A stretch of DNA of 64,000 nucleotides, from NCBI GenBank assembly GCA_028697555.1, contig JAQVEX010000003.1, positions 12,450 through 76,449 of the forward strand. The letters run 5' to 3'. Positions 7,421-59,372 of this stretch are shown piece after piece (within the stretch, counting starts at the first letter, position 1; the number at the start of each line of letters is the position of its first letter). The translations under genes and the position numbers were made by a program. Origin of the DNA: Lentimicrobiaceae bacterium (GTDB taxonomy: Bacteria; Bacteroidota; Bacteroidia; Bacteroidales; UBA4417). The notes beneath the pieces were generated by a model. The model was not told the DNA's origin and did no database searches. It saw only the letters and a list, made by a program, of their open reading frames with translations.

Positions 7421-7565
7421 TGGGTGCGGGTTAGTTTTGAGTTTTGAGTTTTGAGTTCCGAGTTCTGAGTTCCGAGTTCCGAGTTCCGAGTCTCCAAACT
7501 CAATACTCTCGACTCAAAACTGACAACTCACCGACCACCGACCACCAACCACCAATCACCCAAAA
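7421..7565. repeat. mosaic heptamer-array intergenic element, copy A (type II, long imperfect hairpin)
   Basis: Fills the whole spacer between the convergent yitT-like and obg genes. Order: TGGGTGCGGGTTAG, then 8 tandem TTYYGAG heptamers (7435-7490), an A/C-rich complement (ACTCAATACTCTCGACTCAAAACTGAC), then 5 tandem CACCRAC heptamers (7529-7563). The outermost TGGGTG pairs with CACCCA. Confidence 0.9.
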
Positions 7566-10312: not shown

Positions 10313-10486
10313 AAAATTCTATCATTTAATTGCAAAAATGCAAAGTTAGAATTTTATTTAAATTTATTCCTGTCATTTCTAAATAAGTATGACAAATTTC
10401 ATGTTTTTTGCTGATTACTTACTTGTTTTCAAGCATTTTCATCTTTATCATTTACTTTTTTGTTGTGTTTAAAGGATAAAGCTTTT

Positions 10487-10642
10487 GCGTGTTGCGGGGT
10501 ACGAGTTGCGGGTTAGTTTTGTCCCGAAATTTCGGGACAAAACTGACAACTCACCGACCACCAACCACCAACGACCGATCACTCATCACTAATCACCAAA
10601 AGCTAACGGCTAACGGCTAACGGCTAACAGCCAAAAGCTAAT
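10487..10642. repeat. mosaic heptamer-array intergenic element, copy B (type II)
   Basis: Order: GCGTGTTGCGGGGTACGAGTTGCGGGTTAG, a perfect 30-nt palindrome AGTTTTGTCCCGAAATTTCGGGACAAAACT (10515-10544), a CACCGAC/CACCAAC/CATCACT array, then a GCTAACG x3-4 array. Lies in the divergent hpt/purE spacer. Confidence 0.9.
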
Positions 10643-10665
10643 AATTCAAAATAACTTTCAATAAC

Positions 10666-13820: not shown

Positions 13821-13917
13821 TGGTGGCAGATGCAATGAGAAATGAGCAATGTACAGTTAACCCCGAAGTTTCGGGGCTAATTACTAATTGTTAATTATTG
13901 ATTCCCACGTACCCCAT
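13821..13917. repeat. mosaic heptamer-array intergenic element, copy C (type I, short)
   Basis: Order: TGGTGG, CAATGAG-like units, hairpin CCCCGAAGTTTCGGGG (13861-13876), CTAATTACTAATTGTTAATTATTG, then CCCACGTACCCC. Colinear with the cores of copies E and F. Lies in the divergent spacer upstream of porP. Confidence 0.85.
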
Positions 13918-20216: not shown

Positions 20217-20245
20217 AAAAAACCGTTTTTATAACGGTTTTTTTT
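20217..20245 (+). terminator. rho-independent terminator after gldN
   Basis: AAAAAACCGTT-TTTAT-AACGGTTTTTTTT: a perfect stem followed by a T-run, 23 nt after the gldN stop. Confidence 0.8.
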
Positions 20246-24950: not shown

Positions 24951-24988
24951 TAAAAAAACATAAAGACCCTGAACTAACAGGGTCTTTA
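24951..24988 (-). terminator. rho-independent terminator after the PorV/PorQ-like gene
   Basis: The minus strand reads AAAGACCCTG-TTAGTT-CAGGGTCTTT followed by ATGTTTTTTTA. 10-bp perfect stem plus a T-run, between the barrel gene stop and the greA start. Confidence 0.8.
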
Positions 24989-25031
24989 TATTTGGTGAAC
25001 AAAAAGAGTACCAAAATGTATTTCTTCTATA

Positions 25032-35149: not shown

Positions 35150-35572
35150 ATGAAACGTACATATAAAAATATTTTTTTTACTTTGTTATGCTCCTTTTTC
35201 ATGTTTTTATCGTGTGGCGATAAAAACTATCCTGATATACCCTACGTTAATGTCGACAGGTACTTGTATATTAACTCAATGGATTATATTCCCGTAGGTG
35301 GATACAAGTACATAGACGATGGCTACAGAGGTTTGATTGTTTACAGAATTATGACCAACGAGTTTTCGGTATTTGAAAGGTGCTGCCCACACGATCCCGA
35401 AAAGATAACAGCAAAAGTATTTGTTGAAGAATCGGGCGTTATATGTATTGACACAACTTGTGGAAGTCGTTTTAATTTGGTTGACGGAGGCAAAATTGAA
35501 GGTCCATCGATTTACCCTTTAAAAATGTATCGCCATAGCTTTGATGGGGAGGTCTTACATATATATAATTAG
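35150..35572 (+). CDS. Rieske-fold-like small lipoprotein (incomplete cluster ligands)
   Basis: Start taken at the ATG at 35150 (MKRTYKN...), not the GTG at 35075. Lipobox FLSCGD. CPH box (ERCCPHD) followed by CGSR instead of CxxH, with a GP...L..Y tail typical of Rieske-like domains. Confidence 0.5.
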   Translation: MKRTYKNIFFTLLCSFFMFLSCGDKNYPDIPYVNVDRYLYINSMDYIPVGGYKYIDDGYRGLIVYRIMTNEFSVFERCCPHDPEKITAKVFVEESGVICIDTTCGSRFNLVDGGKIEGPSIYPLKMYRHSFDGEVLHIYN

Positions 35573-35775
35573 TGGTACGGGTTACGGGTTGCGGGGTGCG
35601 GGGTGCGGGTTAGTCCCGAAGTTTCGGAAGAGTTACGAGTTATGAGTCGGGAGTTTTGAGTTAGGAGTTAGGAGTTACGAATATTTTTCCTGACTCAGAA
35701 CTCAAAACTCAGAACTAATTCACTAACCACTCATCACCCATCACCCATCACCCATCACCAACCACCGACCACCAC
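35573..35775. repeat. mosaic heptamer-array intergenic element, copy D (type II, long imperfect hairpin)
   Basis: Order: GGTTACG/GGTTGCG/GGGTGCG heptamers, GGGTTAG, hairpin TCCCGAAGTTTCGGA, GAGTTAYG-type units, a loop, complementary CTCAGAACTCAAAACTCAGAAC, then CATCACC x3 and ACCACCGACCACC. Begins right after the stop of the upstream gene. Confidence 0.9.
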
Positions 35776-35790
35776 TTGCACATTTACACA

Positions 35791-35820
35791 AAAAAAGCTG
35801 CCTTTACAGACAGCTTTTTG
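35791..35820. terminator. bidirectional rho-independent terminator (groEL on the minus strand; Rieske-like gene on the plus strand)
   Basis: AAAAAGCTG-N10-CAGCTTTTT with A-run and T-run on both sides. 26 nt beyond the groEL stop. Confidence 0.7.
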
Positions 35821-35845
35821 TTTTATAAGAATATTTACTTATCTA

Positions 35846-37997: not shown

Positions 37998-38032
37998 AAT
38001 AAAAAAAGTGTCAGTTTTTAGACTGACACTTT
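37998..38032 (-). terminator. rho-independent terminator after secG
   Basis: The minus strand reads AGTGTCAG-TCTAAAAA-CTGACACT followed by TTTTTTTATTTTT. 24 nt after the secG stop. Confidence 0.75.
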
Positions 38033-43957: not shown

Positions 43958-44604
43958 TATTCAATTCCCCAAGTTGATGGATTGCTTCTCCATTGTATAA
44001 GCGACTGCATATCACTTTCTTTGATATAATCGTGTTGTAAGGCTGTTTTGATAAGGTCGTTATAATTTGTTAGCGAAAAAAGCTGACAATTTGCAGCTTT
44101 AAAATTTTCGATGGCTTCTTCCAATTGATACGAAAAAATCGACACCATACCTTTAACGTTGGCTTCAGCTTCGCGAAGTGCAGCAACAGCATTCAGACTA
44201 CTTTTGCCTGTGCTTACAAGGTCTTCTATTACAACCACCGATTGTCCGCTTTCAACAACGCCTTCAATCTGGTTTTTCATTCCGTGATCTTTTTTCTCGC
44301 TTCTAACGTAAGCAAAAGGCACACCCAAATCTTGTGCAACCAATGCTCCTATAGCTATTCCGCCTGTAGCAACACCTGCAATTACAGCAACAGGTCCGAA
44401 CTCAATATTTATTATTCTAGCCATTTCCTGACGAACATAAGTTCTTATTTTTGGAAAAGACAAAATCCTGCGATTGTCGCAGTATATAGGCGATTTTATG
44501 CCCGATGCCCATGTAAATGGAGTTGTATTATTTAATTTTATTGCTTTAATTTGCAAAAGAGATTCTGCTGTTACTGCCGAAATTTCATTTAAATATTCCT
44601 TCAT
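43957..44604 (-). CDS. pyrE: orotate phosphoribosyltransferase
   Basis: 215 aa. PRPP motif VVVIEDLVSTGKS and FTWASGIKSPIYCDNR. Confidence 0.93.
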   Translation of the reverse strand: MKEYLNEISAVTAESLLQIKAIKLNNTTPFTWASGIKSPIYCDNRRILSFPKIRTYVRQEMARIINIEFGPVAVIAGVATGGIAIGALVAQDLGVPFAYVRSEKKDHGMKNQIEGVVESGQSVVVIEDLVSTGKSSLNAVAALREAEANVKGMVSIFSYQLEEAIENFKAANCQLFSLTNYNDLIKTALQHDYIKESDMQSLIQWRSNPSTWGIE

Positions 44605-44605
44605 A

Positions 44606-45247
44606 ATGCAAAGATATACTGTTTATTTTCATCAACGTTGTATCAACTTTTACAGCAACAATAAAGCTTTACGCAAAAAAAACGTTGAAGACAATATTGT
44701 TTACTACAACGCCGAATCAAATTTATTTGATCATGTTTTAAATTTTTTATCTGACGACAAAGGTATAAATTTAACTATAATTGCAAAGAAAAGTGAAATA
44801 AAAAATGCTATAAAAAAGTTCAAATCTTTGTTTATCAAAATTGACGCAGCAGGAGGAATTGTAGTCAATAGCAAACAAGAAATACTGTGGATTTACCGAC
44901 TTGGGAAATGGGATTTACCCAAGGGAAAAATAGAAGAGGGTGAAAGCCGAAAAAATGCCGCTTTAAGAGAGGTTGAAGAAGAAACAGGACTTAGCAACCT
45001 AACTATTTTAAGAAAATTGGGAGTTACAAGGCATATTTTTTCAAAAAAAGAAAAATACCATTTAAAACATACGCATTGGTTTTTGATGTATTGTGCAGAT
45101 AATAGCGAGCCAATACCACAAACAGAAGAAGATATACAAATTGTAAAGTGGTTGGATAGGGATAAAAGTTTAGTATGTATAAACAACACATATGACTCTA
45201 TTAAAGATTTGCTGTTGGAAATTGATATTGATAATTTGTTTTTATGA
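44606..45247 (+). CDS. NUDIX hydrolase
   Basis: Nudix box GKIEEGESRKNAALREVEEETGL. Start placed at the ATG at 44606 (MQRYTVYF...) because the track's longer ORF (44474) overlaps pyrE on the opposite strand. Confidence 0.8.
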   Translation: MQRYTVYFHQRCINFYSNNKALRKKNVEDNIVYYNAESNLFDHVLNFLSDDKGINLTIIAKKSEIKNAIKKFKSLFIKIDAAGGIVVNSKQEILWIYRLGKWDLPKGKIEEGESRKNAALREVEEETGLSNLTILRKLGVTRHIFSKKEKYHLKHTHWFLMYCADNSEPIPQTEEDIQIVKWLDRDKSLVCINNTYDSIKDLLLEIDIDNLFL

Positions 45248-45258
45248 TTAATTAGCTA

Positions 45259-45600
45259 TTGGTGAATGGTGGTGGGTGAATGGTGGTGGGTGAATGGTGG
45301 TGAGTGATGGGTGGTGAGTGATGGGTGGTGAGTGATGGGTGGTGAGTGATGGGTGGTGAGTGATGGGTGGTGAGTGATGGGTGGTGAGTGGTGGCTTATA
45401 TCAATTATCAATTATCAATTATCAATTATCAATTATCAATGAACAATGAACCCCGAAACTTCGGGACTAATTACTAATTGTTAATTGCTAATTAAAAATT
45501 ACCACGTAACACGCAACACGTAACCCGCAACACGCAACACGCAACACGCAACCCGCAACCCGAACCCGCCAACAGCTAACAGCTAAAGGCTAAAAGCTGC
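45259..45600. repeat. mosaic heptamer-array intergenic element, copy E (type I, largest, ~340 bp)
   Basis: 3 x GGTGAATGGTGGTG plus 6 x AGTGATGGGTGGTG (nine contiguous 14-mers, 45261-45386). 5 x ATCAATT plus ATCAATG plus AACAATG (45400-45448). Hairpin CCCGAAACTTCGGG (45452-45465). CTAATTA/CTAATTG/TTAATTG units. ACACGCA/ACCCGCA heptamers (45502-45570). AACAGCT/AAAGGCT units (45571-45598). Confidence 0.95.
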
Positions 45601-45692
45601 TATCACGGTTAATTTCTGTTAAAAACAAATTTTATTTTAAATAATAAGTCATATTAATTACTTTTGCAGAGCATATATTTATATGATAAGAG

Positions 45693-46589
45693 ATGAAACA
45701 AAACACAGGAGGACAAAAAATACGTTCATATTTAAAACAACGCCTAAAAGACAGGTTTCGTTTTATCATCTTAAATGAAGACACTTTACAACAAAAGCTA
45801 TCGTTTAAGTTGTCGCGTTCAAATGTGTTTATTATAATAAGCATTTTATCGATATTGCTTGTATTGCTTACGGCGTACATTATAGCTTTTACTCCTTTAA
45901 AAATGTACATACCCGGATACACCAATCCTACACTTCAACATCGTGTTTATGAAGCCGAAATTAAAGCCGACTCTATTGAAAAGAAACTATACTCGTATGA
46001 GTTGTACTTACAAAACATAAAAAACGTTTTGAGCGACAATATTCCGGTAGAAGTTCCCGAACCTGCCACCGACAGCAGCGAAAATAAGGGTGTTACGGTG
46101 GTTGCCGACAATACTTCGGCAAAGGATTCATTGCTACGAAAAGAATACGAAGCCTACATCAACTTGAACTACTTTAGCTCGGAAGAGCAGAAAGAACAAA
46201 ACCTTATTACGGAAGCAAAAATCTACAACTTTTATCCACCGATAAACGGTATAATTTCGTCGAAATTTAACCCCGCAATAGGTCATTACGGAATTGATTT
46301 GGTTGCCGAAACAGATGAAGCAGTGAGAAGCGTGCAAGACGGCACTGTCATGTTTTCCGATTGGACTATAGAAACAGGCTACGTTATAATAATTCAACAT
46401 AGCGGAAGTATTACATCAGTATATAAACACAATTCCGTTTTGCTTAAAAAAACAGGTGAAAAGGTTATTGCCGGAGAAGCAATCGCCATTATTGGAAATA
46501 GCGGAGATTTTTCCAGCGGTCCGCATTTACATTTTGAATTGTGGATAGACAGAATTCCGGTAAATCCCCAAGATTATATTTTATTTTAA
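45693..46589 (+). CDS. M23 family metallopeptidase (membrane-anchored)
   Basis: 298 aa. One TM helix, and a LytM/M23 domain with HYGIDL and GNSGDFSSGPHLHFEL motifs. Confidence 0.88.
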   Translation: MKQNTGGQKIRSYLKQRLKDRFRFIILNEDTLQQKLSFKLSRSNVFIIISILSILLVLLTAYIIAFTPLKMYIPGYTNPTLQHRVYEAEIKADSIEKKLYSYELYLQNIKNVLSDNIPVEVPEPATDSSENKGVTVVADNTSAKDSLLRKEYEAYINLNYFSSEEQKEQNLITEAKIYNFYPPINGIISSKFNPAIGHYGIDLVAETDEAVRSVQDGTVMFSDWTIETGYVIIIQHSGSITSVYKHNSVLLKKTGEKVIAGEAIAIIGNSGDFSSGPHLHFELWIDRIPVNPQDYILF

Positions 46590-49607: not shown

Positions 49608-49780
49608 CTTGGCTGTTAGCTGTTAGCTCTTAGCCTTTAGCTGTTGGCAATGAGCAATGAGCAATGAGCAATGAGCAATGAACACCGAAACTTCGGGGTT
49701 AATTATTAATTGATAATTGTTAATTGAAAATTGCCACGCACCTCGAAACCCGCAACCCGCAACCCGTACCAACCACCACC
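49608..49780. repeat. mosaic heptamer-array intergenic element, copy F (type I)
   Basis: Order: GCTGTTA/GCTCTTA units, 5 x GCAATGA (49647-49681), hairpin CCGAAACTTCGG (49685-49696), TTAATTA/TTAATTG/ATAATTG units, CCACGCACC, CCGCAAC x2-3, then ACCAACCACCACC. Fills the whole spacer between the convergent hypothetical gene and udk. Confidence 0.95.
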
Positions 49781-50388
49781 TACTGTAGCTTCATCAAAAT
49801 GCCTGAAACAATCAAATCTATTGCGTTGTCGTTTTCGCCGCCTTGCGGGACGATAATATCTGCCAGACGCTTGCATGGCTCTATAAACTGCAAATGCATA
49901 GGTTTTACCCATTTATAGTAGTGTTCTAAGACTTGCTCTACAGAGCGTCCTCTTTCAACAGTGTCACGTCCGATAATTCTGGCGAGTCTATCGTCGCTTT
50001 CGGCATCAACAAAGACTTTTAGGTCTAACAAATCTACCAATTTTCTATTTGTAAAAACCATTATGCCTTCTATAATAATTATATCGCTGGGCAAAACTGT
50101 TATTGTTTCGGTTAAACGCGAAGAGGTAATATATGAATATGTAGGCATTTCAATTGCCTTTCCGTTGCGCAACTGTTTTACGTGCTCTATCAACAATGAC
50201 CATTCAAAAGAATCGGGGTGGTCGAAATTTACGTTCAGTTTTTCCTGAGCCGTCAGATGCGAACTATCTTTATAGTAAGAATCTAACGATATTGTTGAAA
50301 TAGAATCGGTTGGTAGTTGTTTTACAATTTTTCTAACCACCGTAGTTTTACCACTACCTGAGCCACCGGCAACACCAATAATAAACAT
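49780..50388 (-). CDS. udk: uridine kinase
   Basis: 202 aa. P-loop GVAGGSGSGKTT and the NFDHPDSFE motif. Confidence 0.92.
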   Translation of the reverse strand: MFIIGVAGGSGSGKTTVVRKIVKQLPTDSISTISLDSYYKDSSHLTAQEKLNVNFDHPDSFEWSLLIEHVKQLRNGKAIEMPTYSYITSSRLTETITVLPSDIIIIEGIMVFTNRKLVDLLDLKVFVDAESDDRLARIIGRDTVERGRSVEQVLEHYYKWVKPMHLQFIEPCKRLADIIVPQGGENDNAIDLIVSGILMKLQ

Positions 50389-58140: not shown

Positions 58141-59232
58141 ATGTACGACAAACAAACACTGAAATCTATTGCAGAAAAATTCTACATTCAAGATAGTATT
58201 ACCAATATTAAAGACAATGCTGCAGGTTTTATTAACGATACGTTTTTTCTGAACGGCGAAAAACGAAATTACATCTTGCAACGCAAAAACTCTTACGTTT
58301 TTAGCGATATAAAAGGCATGATGAACAATATTCTCGGTGTTACCGAACATATAAAAAGCAAACTTGTTAGTCAGAATAAAGACCCCGAAAAAGGCACTAT
58401 TACCTTGTTCAAAACAAAAGACGAACTGCCCTACTACATTGACGACAATGGCGAGTATTGGTCTTTGTTTTTGTTTATAGATGATACAATAACACACAAC
58501 GAAGTCAGCAATTTAAAAATAGCTTACAACGCAGGTGTAGCAACCGGCGAGTGGCAATATATGCTCAGTGATTACACAAAACCTTTGGCGGAAGTTTTAC
58601 CCGGATTTCACGACATGGCTTTCCGCTTTGAGCAATGGAACGAATGCATCAGTAACAACTTTGCTAATCGCATTGAATCGGTTAAGGACTTGGTGTTTGA
58701 AATTGAAAGTCGCAGAAATGATATTTTAAATATTAGAAAGCATTTCGACGACAATAGTATTCCCAAACGCGTTTCGCACAACGATACGAAAATTAGCAAT
58801 TTTTTATTCGATAGTCAGGACAATGTTGTTGCTCTTATTGATTTGGATACTGTTATGCGATTGTCGGTTCTGTTCGATTACGGAGATGCTATTCGTTCGT
58901 ACGTTAACACTGCTGCCGAAGATGAGCCCAACACCGACGCCGTAAACGTAGATTTCGATATTTTTAAATCGTACACCGAAGGCTACCTTAAATACGGAAA
59001 ACTATTTTTAAACAACACCGAAATAGAAAACCTGTTAAATTCGGCTATTTACATAGTATATGAACAAACTTTACGCTTTTTGGTCGATTACATAGACGGC
59101 GATAAATACTACAAAATATCATATCCCGAGCATAATTTGGTCAGAACTAAAGCCCAACTCAAATTGCTTAAAACGTTGGAGTTGAATAGAAATAGGTTGC
59201 TTGACATTGTTTACAAAGCAATCAGTGATTAG
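58141..59232 (+). CDS. N-acetylhexosamine 1-kinase-like phosphotransferase (APH fold, NahK-like)
   Basis: 363 aa. RVSHNDTKISNFLFD, LIDLDTVM and FDYGDAIR catalytic motifs, and a C-terminal YPEHNLVRTKAQLKLL block that matches Bifidobacterium NahK as I recall it. Confidence 0.7.
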   Translation: MYDKQTLKSIAEKFYIQDSITNIKDNAAGFINDTFFLNGEKRNYILQRKNSYVFSDIKGMMNNILGVTEHIKSKLVSQNKDPEKGTITLFKTKDELPYYIDDNGEYWSLFLFIDDTITHNEVSNLKIAYNAGVATGEWQYMLSDYTKPLAEVLPGFHDMAFRFEQWNECISNNFANRIESVKDLVFEIESRRNDILNIRKHFDDNSIPKRVSHNDTKISNFLFDSQDNVVALIDLDTVMRLSVLFDYGDAIRSYVNTAAEDEPNTDAVNVDFDIFKSYTEGYLKYGKLFLNNTEIENLLNSAIYIVYEQTLRFLVDYIDGDKYYKISYPEHNLVRTKAQLKLLKTLELNRNRLLDIVYKAISD

Positions 59233-59372
59233 TGGTTGGTGGTCGGGGTTGGGGTTAGTTCTGAGTTATGAGTTATGAGTTACGAGTTACGAGTTCTGAG
59301 TGTCAAAACTCCAGACTCAAAACTCGAAACTCGAAACTCACACGCAACACACAACTAATAACGCTTTATAAC
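59233..59372. repeat. mosaic heptamer-array intergenic element, copy G (type II, long imperfect hairpin)
   Basis: Order: TGGTTGGTGGTCGGGGTTGGGGTTAG, GAGTTAT/GAGTTAC/GAGTTCT heptamers, complementary CTCAAAACTCGAAACTCGAAACTC, then CACGCAACACACAAC. Fills the spacer between the convergent NahK-like and M20 genes. Confidence 0.9.

Follow-up and report, generated by a model that had tools for sequence, protein, structure and literature searches.

A quasi-palindromic, polar mosaic of heptanucleotide repeats in the NUDIX-M23 spacer of a Lentimicrobiaceae bacterium

We analyzed a 64,000-nucleotide stretch of contig JAQVEX010000003.1 (positions 12,450 to 76,449, forward strand; GenBank assembly GCA_028697555.1) from a Lentimicrobiaceae bacterium, hereafter the window, which has a GC content of 36.9% and whose proteins have their closest relatives in metagenome-assembled genomes (MAGs) of Lentimicrobiaceae and other Bacteroidales. 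Our subject is element E (45259-45600), the largest of at least seven related elements in the window, all of them intergenic. E forms the non-coding spacer of about 340 bp between two tandem genes of the + strand, a NUDIX hydrolase gene (44606..45247; Pfam NUDIX, E=6.6e-21) and an M23 peptidase gene (45693..46589) that is followed by dxr and an M50/RseP protease. Pfam thus agrees with the location given in a first-pass annotation that had been made from the sequence alone. The arrays of E begin 14 nt past the NUDIX stop codon, and the whole is built of heptamer arrays around a small GC hairpin: a G/T-rich 5' arm, the hairpin and a C/A-rich 3' arm, which together make an imperfect palindrome.

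The 5' arm opens with three copies of GGTGAATGGTGGTG (starting at 45261, 45275 and 45289; 45261..45302, + strand), exactly matching G-rich units that appear to be the older ones and of which the sister species retains one. Six perfect copies of AGTGATGGGTGGTG follow (at 45303, 45317, 45331, 45345, 45359 and 45373; 45303..45386, + strand), which we read as a recent expansion and whose unit also stands at the start of a comparison locus from a related strain (L174). Exact string search confirms that these nine 14-mers run without interruption for 126 bases, 45261-45386, just as first described, and Tandem Repeats Finder (TRF) reports the array at 45268-45394 with period 14, 9.1 copies, 96% matches and a score of 205. 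A degenerate unit and the junction AGTGGTGGCTTA (45387..45398, + strand, read from the sequence) lead into six TATCAAT and then two CAATGAA units (45399..45451, + strand), the left side of a dispersed core module that can be aligned to the F and H cores; TRF gives TATCAAT x6.0 with 100% matches at 45399-45440 and CAATGAA x2.1 at 45437-45451. The GC mini-hairpin CCCCGAAACTTCGGG (45451..45465, no strand assigned), found by motif search and by folding, measures 14-15 nt, or about two heptamers, and folds with a 5-bp stem and a 4-nt loop. The right side of the core module consists of 5.3 ACTAATT/GTTAATT units (45466..45502, + strand; TRF and alignment) that are partially complementary to the TATCAAT units. 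Beyond it lies the C-rich 3' arm, about ten CACGCAA/CCCGCAA units (45503..45574, + strand) that are homologous to the right arms of L174 and of the sister-species locus L164 and that TRF reports as CACGCAA/AACCCGC x8-9 at 45503-45569. The outermost array on this side holds 3.6 AACAGCT/AGCTAAA units (45574..45600, + strand; TRF and alignment), reported by TRF as AGCTAAA x3.6 at 45574-45598. In all, TRF finds five further period-7 arrays besides the 14-mer array, and together with the motif search this bears out the earlier description of additional phased arrays and a GC hairpin within a 340-bp spacer.

A continuous 7-nt register had been claimed for the entire element. The register is indeed unbroken to ~45560, but a single 6-nt unit, AACCCG (~45561-45566), around which TRF reports 3-4% indels, then shifts it by -1 before the AGCTAA units. 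Self-identity of 45261-45600 reaches 0.71 at a lag of 7 nt and 0.76 at a lag of 14, compared with 0.25-0.29 at lags 5, 6, 8 and 9 and a window background of 0.274. When a single threshold was applied over the window, period-7 arrays covered 577 nt and periods 4-6 and 8-12 covered 0 nt. No open reading frame (ORF) of at least 60 aa was found on either strand of 45259-45600, and a coding reading was ruled out on this result and on the stop codons that recur in the units. An Rfam scan of the whole window at gathering thresholds gave 0 matches, a permissive scan of 45200-45720 yielded nothing beyond eukaryotic miRNA and snoRNA matches far below threshold, and searches of the window for tRNA and tmRNA genes found none.

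Relatives of the locus were obtained by homologue search together with exact-protein look-ups; a metagenome scan with the M23 protein gave a best match of 54% identity and no close relative. The comparison set comprises loci in synteny from a sister species (L164-L169 and L175; M23 87% identical at the nucleotide level) and L174, a single contig from a strain whose M23 gene is 97% identical at that level. The orthologous NUDIX-M23 spacer is 396 bp long in L164 and 389 bp in L165, L166 and L168, and the two versions differ by one extra GAGTCAG unit in L164 with 0 mismatches otherwise, while 83 of 3408 sites differ between L164 and L165 in the adjoining coding DNA. L169 carries one ACTCAAG unit more than L164 and L167. 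Five independent sister-species assemblies have like arrays at this site, three of them identical, and the 14-mer array has 9 units in the window against about 2 in the sister species. Unit counts therefore do differ between related genomes, by a one-unit indel and by 9 versus ~2 copies, and the earlier proposal of recent slipped-strand expansion at a locus with a variable number of tandem repeats (VNTR) is sustained; for the 14-mer array itself we infer it from these comparisons. The nine-unit count comes from one assembly and stands without independent confirmation, because every short-read contig of the species (L163, L001 and L002) breaks inside the arrays. The independent Logan contig L001 matches the right-hand 280 nt of E exactly.

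Unit content changes between relatives in blocks as well as in number. The left part of L174 has AGTGATGGGTGGTG units as in the window and its right part has homologous CCCGCAA/AACAGCT arrays, but its centre carries a GAGTNAG...ACTCAAG hairpin module like that of the sister species and lacks the TATCAAT-hairpin-TAATTR core of the window. E had first been treated as one unit; the differing core of L174 shows it to be a mosaic of exchangeable modules instead. At the sites orthologous to elements A, B and F the position is likewise kept between conserved flanks, with largely different unit content. A second variable locus is the F-orthologous spacer of the sister species, which occurs in two haplotypes of 314 and 351 bp (L164 13988-14303 versus L165 13988-14340) that differ in how many GGTGAAT-type units they contain and in the inner part of a mini element.

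The other six elements of the window (no strand assigned) share this construction. Copy A (7421..7565) fills the convergent yitT-obg spacer; copy B (10485..10645), which includes the hairpin, lies between the divergent hpt-like and purE genes; copy H (13826..13916) consists of the core module only, lies between the divergent gldN and porP genes and is absent at the orthologous site of L175; copy C (35571..35776) occupies a convergent spacer upstream of the canonical groEL terminator; copy F (49612..49779) fills its convergent spacer right up to the udk stop codon; and copy G (59233..59360) nearly fills a convergent spacer and ends ~14 nt before the stop codon of an M20 peptidase gene. Lag-7 identity of the seven ranges from 0.49 to 0.73. 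They draw on a common vocabulary of units and their complements, namely GGTGGTG with CACCAAC, TTGCGGG with CCCGCAA, GAGTTNN with NNAACTC, AGCTAAC with AGCTGTT, and CAATGA with TAATTR, and each unit type has a constant core of 4-5 nt, 2-3 variable positions and a strict 7-nt spacing. Units of opposite arms are complementary at about 4-5 of 7 positions, so that each element is an imperfect long palindrome. A motif search found the hairpin CCCGAANNTTCGGG in five of the seven elements (B, H, C, E and F).

The arms are also polar. In all seven elements GC skew changes from positive on the left to negative on the right, and with the palindromic layout this means that both strands read G-rich first and C-rich second; the opposite order occurs in 0 of 7. 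On each strand of the 64 kb, the five most C-rich, G-poor 70-nt windows are all element arms. The CACGCAA arm of E is among the five on the + strand, in line with the earlier remark that the opposite arm is C-rich on the same strand.

Placement with respect to genes is far from even. By the ORF map, elements occur in 4 of 6 convergent junctions and in 3 of 48 other junctions (Fisher p=0.0015). The two convergent junctions that lack an element have spacers of at most 17 nt, and every convergent spacer longer than ~20 nt is filled. The arrays of A and F run essentially from stop codon to stop codon, and G starts at the upstream stop. In places, array units overlap or abut the stops themselves (59221-59240 and 49775-49782): the TAG of a 363-aa gene lies within a TAGTGGT unit, and the CCACCAC array of F reaches the udk stop. 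Pfam-matched neighbours of the seven elements are NUDIX, M23/dxr/rseP, yitT/obg, hpt/purE, groEL, udk, an APH-family phosphotransferase, the M20 peptidase and the gliding and type IX secretion system genes gldN and porP, and two further neighbours have no Pfam match; the genes beside all seven elements are housekeeping genes.

Downstream of E, the promoter and 5' leader block of the M23 gene (45603..45692, + strand) is conserved, with 3 mismatches in 90 nt versus L174 and versus L164, whereas the arrays of E cannot be aligned to either. Within this block, sequence reading places a Bacteroidota-type -7 box, TACTTTTG, at 45659-45666, where it had first been noted, and the arrays end at ~45600, 59 nt upstream of it. 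Because the conserved block lies entirely downstream of the arrays, unit number cannot alter the -33/-7 spacing; the suggestion that it might influence promoter context finds no support, given this arrangement and the housekeeping neighbours, though it may affect read-through. As for phase variation, E lies neither inside an ORF nor between core promoter elements, and the neighbours of the seven elements are not surface, virulence or restriction-modification genes. On the upstream side, ATG 44606 is the likely start of the NUDIX gene: the 213-aa product from this start is on exact record in Logan contig L163, which ends 19 nt past the stop, and the TTG-start version is not on record.

Predicted folding of the + strand is stronger than that of dinucleotide-shuffled sequences in six elements (z -3.3 to -6.0), and E folds better on the sense strand than on the other (-115 versus -82 kcal/mol). 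A search for intrinsic terminators on the + strand of 44400-46000 found no site, the hairpin of E being followed by ACTAATT, and no canonical hairpin-plus-U terminator was found in the A, F and G spacers. Canonical hairpin-plus-T terminators occur elsewhere in the window, at 20217-20243, 24956-24993 and 38005-38032, and a further terminator near 35793-35822, beside element C, was read by eye. The latter falls within a bidirectional terminator-like hairpin with flanking A and T runs at 35790-35825, AAAAAAAGCTGCC TTTACA GACAGCTTTTTG, between C and the groEL stop, so C would be part of the 3' untranslated region (UTR) of the 165-aa gene upstream rather than the terminator. In a 73%-identical relative, the convergent spacer downstream of yitT holds a textbook bidirectional terminator.

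Our preferred reading, to which we give a probability of about 0.65, is that E is a non-coding, hypervariable heptanucleotide simple sequence repeat (SSR) or VNTR mosaic that is driven by slippage, is quasi-palindromic, sits at gene 3' ends and may act as a transcript-end barrier. E has the properties by which heptanucleotide long SSRs (LSSRs) and VNTRs are recognized: head-to-tail units beyond chance, copy differences of whole units and a non-coding place. Whole units are gained and lost, modules and hairpins are present or absent, position is kept while content changes, polarity is fixed and the elements are enriched at gene 3' ends. Replication slippage in steps of 7 or 14 nt would create and resize the arrays, templated copying or recombination between elements with common arrays may swap modules, and template switching within the quasi-palindrome could keep the arms complementary at ~4-5/7 positions. 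Unit number is probably close to neutral. Because the elements stand at transcript 3' ends and fill sizeable convergent spacers that mostly lack canonical terminators, a transcript-end barrier or insulator, suggested by position and composition, is the most likely role if there is any. Such a barrier might work through a long imperfect RNA hairpin, or through the very C-rich, G-poor distal arm, where Rho could load onto read-through or antisense RNA.

Several observations weigh against a functional form of this reading. A 3'-end role would be meaningless for B and H, which are placed between divergent genes, and C adjoins a canonical terminator and need not act as one. Arm lengths differ greatly (126 nt of 14-mers versus ~70 nt of CACGCAA units in E; 13 versus 5 GAGT/ACTC units in L164), a pattern more in keeping with drift than with selection for a hairpin. 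Folding of E has a modest z-score (-3.7) and that of F a non-significant one (-1.4), and among 13 elements and orthologues no consistent link was found between the strand asymmetry of folding and the direction of transcription. Given the divergent placement of B and H, the terminator beside C, the unequal arms and the lack of a strand link, a largely neutral or selfish nature is quite possible. The copy difference of the 14-mer array, moreover, is one between species, and the termination or insulation role is read from position and composition.

The strongest competitor, which we regard as possible though distinctly less probable, is that these are selfish, non-autonomous mobile DNA of the REPIN, MITE (miniature inverted-repeat transposable element) or SDR kind. 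E would then be a nest of a ~75-nt core and an 11-16-nt mini-hairpin within older arrays, spread by an enzyme for which heptamer arrays are the preferred landing ground. Across the elements only the 14-nt hairpin (five copies in the window) and the ~75-nt core (three copies) are conserved, and the remainder of each element differs. The core, [CAATGA]n-CCCGAANNTTCGGG-[CTAATTR]n-ATTNCCACG, is found at 13836-13910, 45437-45510 and 49650-49740 (H, E and F) in one orientation with a mean identity of 74% in alignment, and L174 lacks it at the site orthologous to E, as L175 does at the site orthologous to H. At three orthologous array positions L164/L165 contain hairpin insertions of 11-16 nt that are missing from the window and L174, and the hairpin is identical (CCCGAAACTTCGGG) at several unrelated sites. 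The G-to-C polarity of 7/7 elements is what one would expect of a replicating inverted doublet, and sister-species arrays harbour both an IS3-like element and another mini element whose ends are inverted. However, comparisons of occupied and empty sites gave no defined ends, terminal inverted repeats or target-site duplications, and the difference at E between strains is a replacement rather than a clean insertion. One hairpin insertion, in the F orthologue, uses the array's own CCCG as half of its stem, which local template switching would explain equally well. Pfam searches found no transposase among the 18 window proteins scanned and none encoded beside any copy, and 159 loci of other Bacteroidales lack the hairpin motif. 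A more speculative proposal, to which we give little credence, is that the heptamer quasi-palindromes form a purpose-built, bidirectional transcript-end system in this genus, replacing hairpin-plus-U terminators, and/or that an as yet unknown enzyme copies the 7-nt units and the 14-nt hairpin. In such a system a gene's own 3' UTR would be G-rich, and a polymerase that passed the apex would make extremely C-rich, G-poor RNA, to which Rho would be recruited to end antisense or read-through transcription; the copying enzyme would account for the universal 7-nt step and the fixed polarity.

The remaining explanations are less probable than these. The first-pass annotation had raised the ideas that the GG/GGG tracts of the 14-mers could form G-quadruplexes (G4s) and that unit number could influence read-through or promoter context; as a full model, the unit number of a G4-forming array would tune read-through or the promoter of the M23-dxr-rseP genes as a phase-variable switch. 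The 14-mer array is the most G-rich segment of the window, its unit number varies between relatives, and comparable heptamer repeats of Xanthomonas and Nostoc form G4s in vitro (PMC4692102). The array passes relaxed patterns (G2 tracts with loops of 1-7 nt, or G3 tracts with loops of up to 12 nt), but a regular-expression search for (G3+N1-7)x4 found no match in E and, in the window, matched only element C (35579-35603). G4Hunter gives a mean of 1.16 for 45261-45386, under the 1.5 criterion, and the best 25-nt windows score 1.44 among the three GGTGAATGGTGGTG units and 1.24 among the six AGTGATGGGTGGTG units, values at or under common thresholds; what is left of the idea is a weak, two-tetrad or long-loop potential. 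Other copies of this architecture carry units with no G4 character (GAGTTNN, AGCTGTT), the arrays end 59 nt short of the -7 box and outside the block conserved between species, housekeeping genes neighbour all seven copies, and Rehm et al. found no regulatory role for their repeats (PMC4692102), so that we consider such a switch quite improbable. The canonical G4 and canonical terminator readings of E were both rejected on the motif and terminator searches. We also think it unlikely, if slightly less so, that the arrays bind a protein each monomer of which reads ~7 nt of single-stranded RNA or DNA, for instance a cold-shock-domain, S1-like or nucleoid protein, and so serve as a post-transcriptional or chromosome-organizing site. 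The constant 4-5-nt core with 2-3 variable positions and the strict 7-nt spacing would suit such a protein, and S1, Csp or CsrA-type binders have been proposed for TAACTGA heptamers (MacGregor, PMC4679880). On the other hand, at least eight unrelated unit sequences occur next to one another, too varied for any one sequence-specific binder to read; at a given site the unit types turn over completely from one sister species to the other, and the analysis identified no candidate protein. That the assembly is in error, with a repeat collapsed or mis-joined, might be suspected from the contigs that break in the arrays and from the single assembly behind the nine-unit count; the exact match of L001, the like arrays of the five sister-species assemblies and the common architecture of the seven window copies make it very improbable indeed. 

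Heptamer mosaics have been known since 1990 in cyanobacteria and later in Xanthomonas and a few Bacteroidetes. The STRR heptamer repeats of cyanobacteria were reportedly described by Mazel et al. in 1990, and Elhai et al. are said to have described, in 2008, very small hairpin repeats (SDR) in Nostoc heptamer arrays as mobile. Going by these descriptions, the elements of the window resemble STRR and SDR repeats in being intergenic heptamer mosaics with small hairpins present or absent within arrays, and embedded small hairpins with presence/absence polymorphism are indeed seen in the alignments of L164/L165 with the window and L174. They differ from them in that unit and hairpin sequences appear unrelated, the hairpin measures only 11-16 nt and the lineage is another.

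Heptanucleotides are the most abundant class of LSSR in many prokaryotes, with a polymerase-slippage origin proposed (Mrazek 2007, summarised in PMC4679880). As in the LSSRs of that summary (Mrazek, Guo & Shah 2007, summarised in PMC4679880), the units of E are intergenic 7-nt tandems beyond chance that change by whole units between relatives, presumably through slippage; unlike the LSSRs as summarised there, E strings many unit types in register and has an imperfect palindrome, a fixed G-to-C polarity and a small GC hairpin. The G-rich heptamers GGGNATC and GGGGA(C/T)T of Xanthomonas and Nostoc adjoin the 5' neighbouring ORF on the coding strand, just past the stop codon (Rehm et al. 2015, PMC4692102). 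They sometimes form inverted repeats, are depleted between divergent genes and vary strongly among close relatives, and no function was found (PMC4692102). E shares with them the G-rich heptamers past a stop codon, the kept position and the variable length and sequence (PMC4692102), but its G tracts are weaker (GG/GGG, the GGG runs being separated by 11-nt loops) and of marginal G4 potential, it shows no preference for four units and it belongs to the phylum Bacteroidota.

Closer in phylogeny are the assemblages of several heptamers in Gramella, Aequorivita and Elizabethkingia, in which assemblies break (MacGregor 2015, PMC4679880). These assemblages of TAACTGA and other heptamers come from the same phylum, comprise several intergenic heptamer types, are lacking in close relatives at the same site and break draft assemblies, as here (PMC4679880); the present elements have no TAACTGA units, lie mostly downstream of genes rather than just upstream of start codons, and have a palindromic architecture and polarity that were not described there (PMC4679880). 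The REP, BIME and REPIN elements of Proteobacteria are also dispersed intergenic imperfect palindromes, often at 3' ends or between convergent genes, with a fixed doublet polarity and a history as insertion sequence (IS) targets, and roles in mRNA 3'-end stabilisation and termination have been proposed for them (PMC3116915). They have a consensus of ~35 nt and depend on a RAYT transposase, neither of which was seen here within the 64 kb. E and its kin thus belong to a known class of heptamer SSR mosaics, in a new lineage and with a particularly clean palindromic, polar architecture; we found no description of heptamer mosaics in Lentimicrobiaceae in the literature searched.

This lineage offers a compact and clean case, with seven elements in 64 kb, strict G-to-C polarity, all sizeable convergent spacers occupied, a one-unit polymorphism and module exchange among near-identical genomes, and for that reason the slippage or copying mechanism and the possible terminator or insulator role become testable. 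The old questions of why the unit has 7 nt and what the arrays do are made more tractable. In practical terms, the arrays break short-read assemblies of the group and are natural strain-typing markers.

A few further observations concern the relatives and the other copies. At three sister-species loci, the same end of an IS3-like insertion sequence, TGTCATGTCCTGAAATAGGTTTACACC with an OrfA carrying HTH_Tnp_1 behind it, adjoins '...GAG' within heptamer arrays: downstream of groEL (L164:1-45), in the NUDIX-M23 spacer (L167:~108 and L169:~87) and in the F-orthologous spacer (L169:4452). The insertions are absent in other assemblies of the sister species, and, like REP elements, the heptamer arrays seem to be hot spots of IS insertion. 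Sister-species arrays also hold, at two loci, the F and A orthologues (L164:14200-14260, L165:14229-14295 and L175:11038-11115), a second mini element of ~45-75 nt whose ends are inverted (CATTTTCGG...CCGAAAATG) and whose interior varies; the window lacks it.

Long period-7 arrays also stand upstream of the M23 gene in two distant Bacteroidales MAGs with ~50% M23 identity (L007:2081-2880 and L085:688-860). They are made of unrelated, CT-rich units (TACCTCT, GGTTTCT and CTTCCGA) and show no obvious palindromic layout. Within the window, G4Hunter scores reach 2.0 in the left arm of C (35579-35609, GGGTTACGGGTTGCGGGGTGCGGGG) and 1.76 in the left arm of G (59227-59270); judged by their sequence, these arms would be much better G-quadruplex candidates than the 14-mer array of E.

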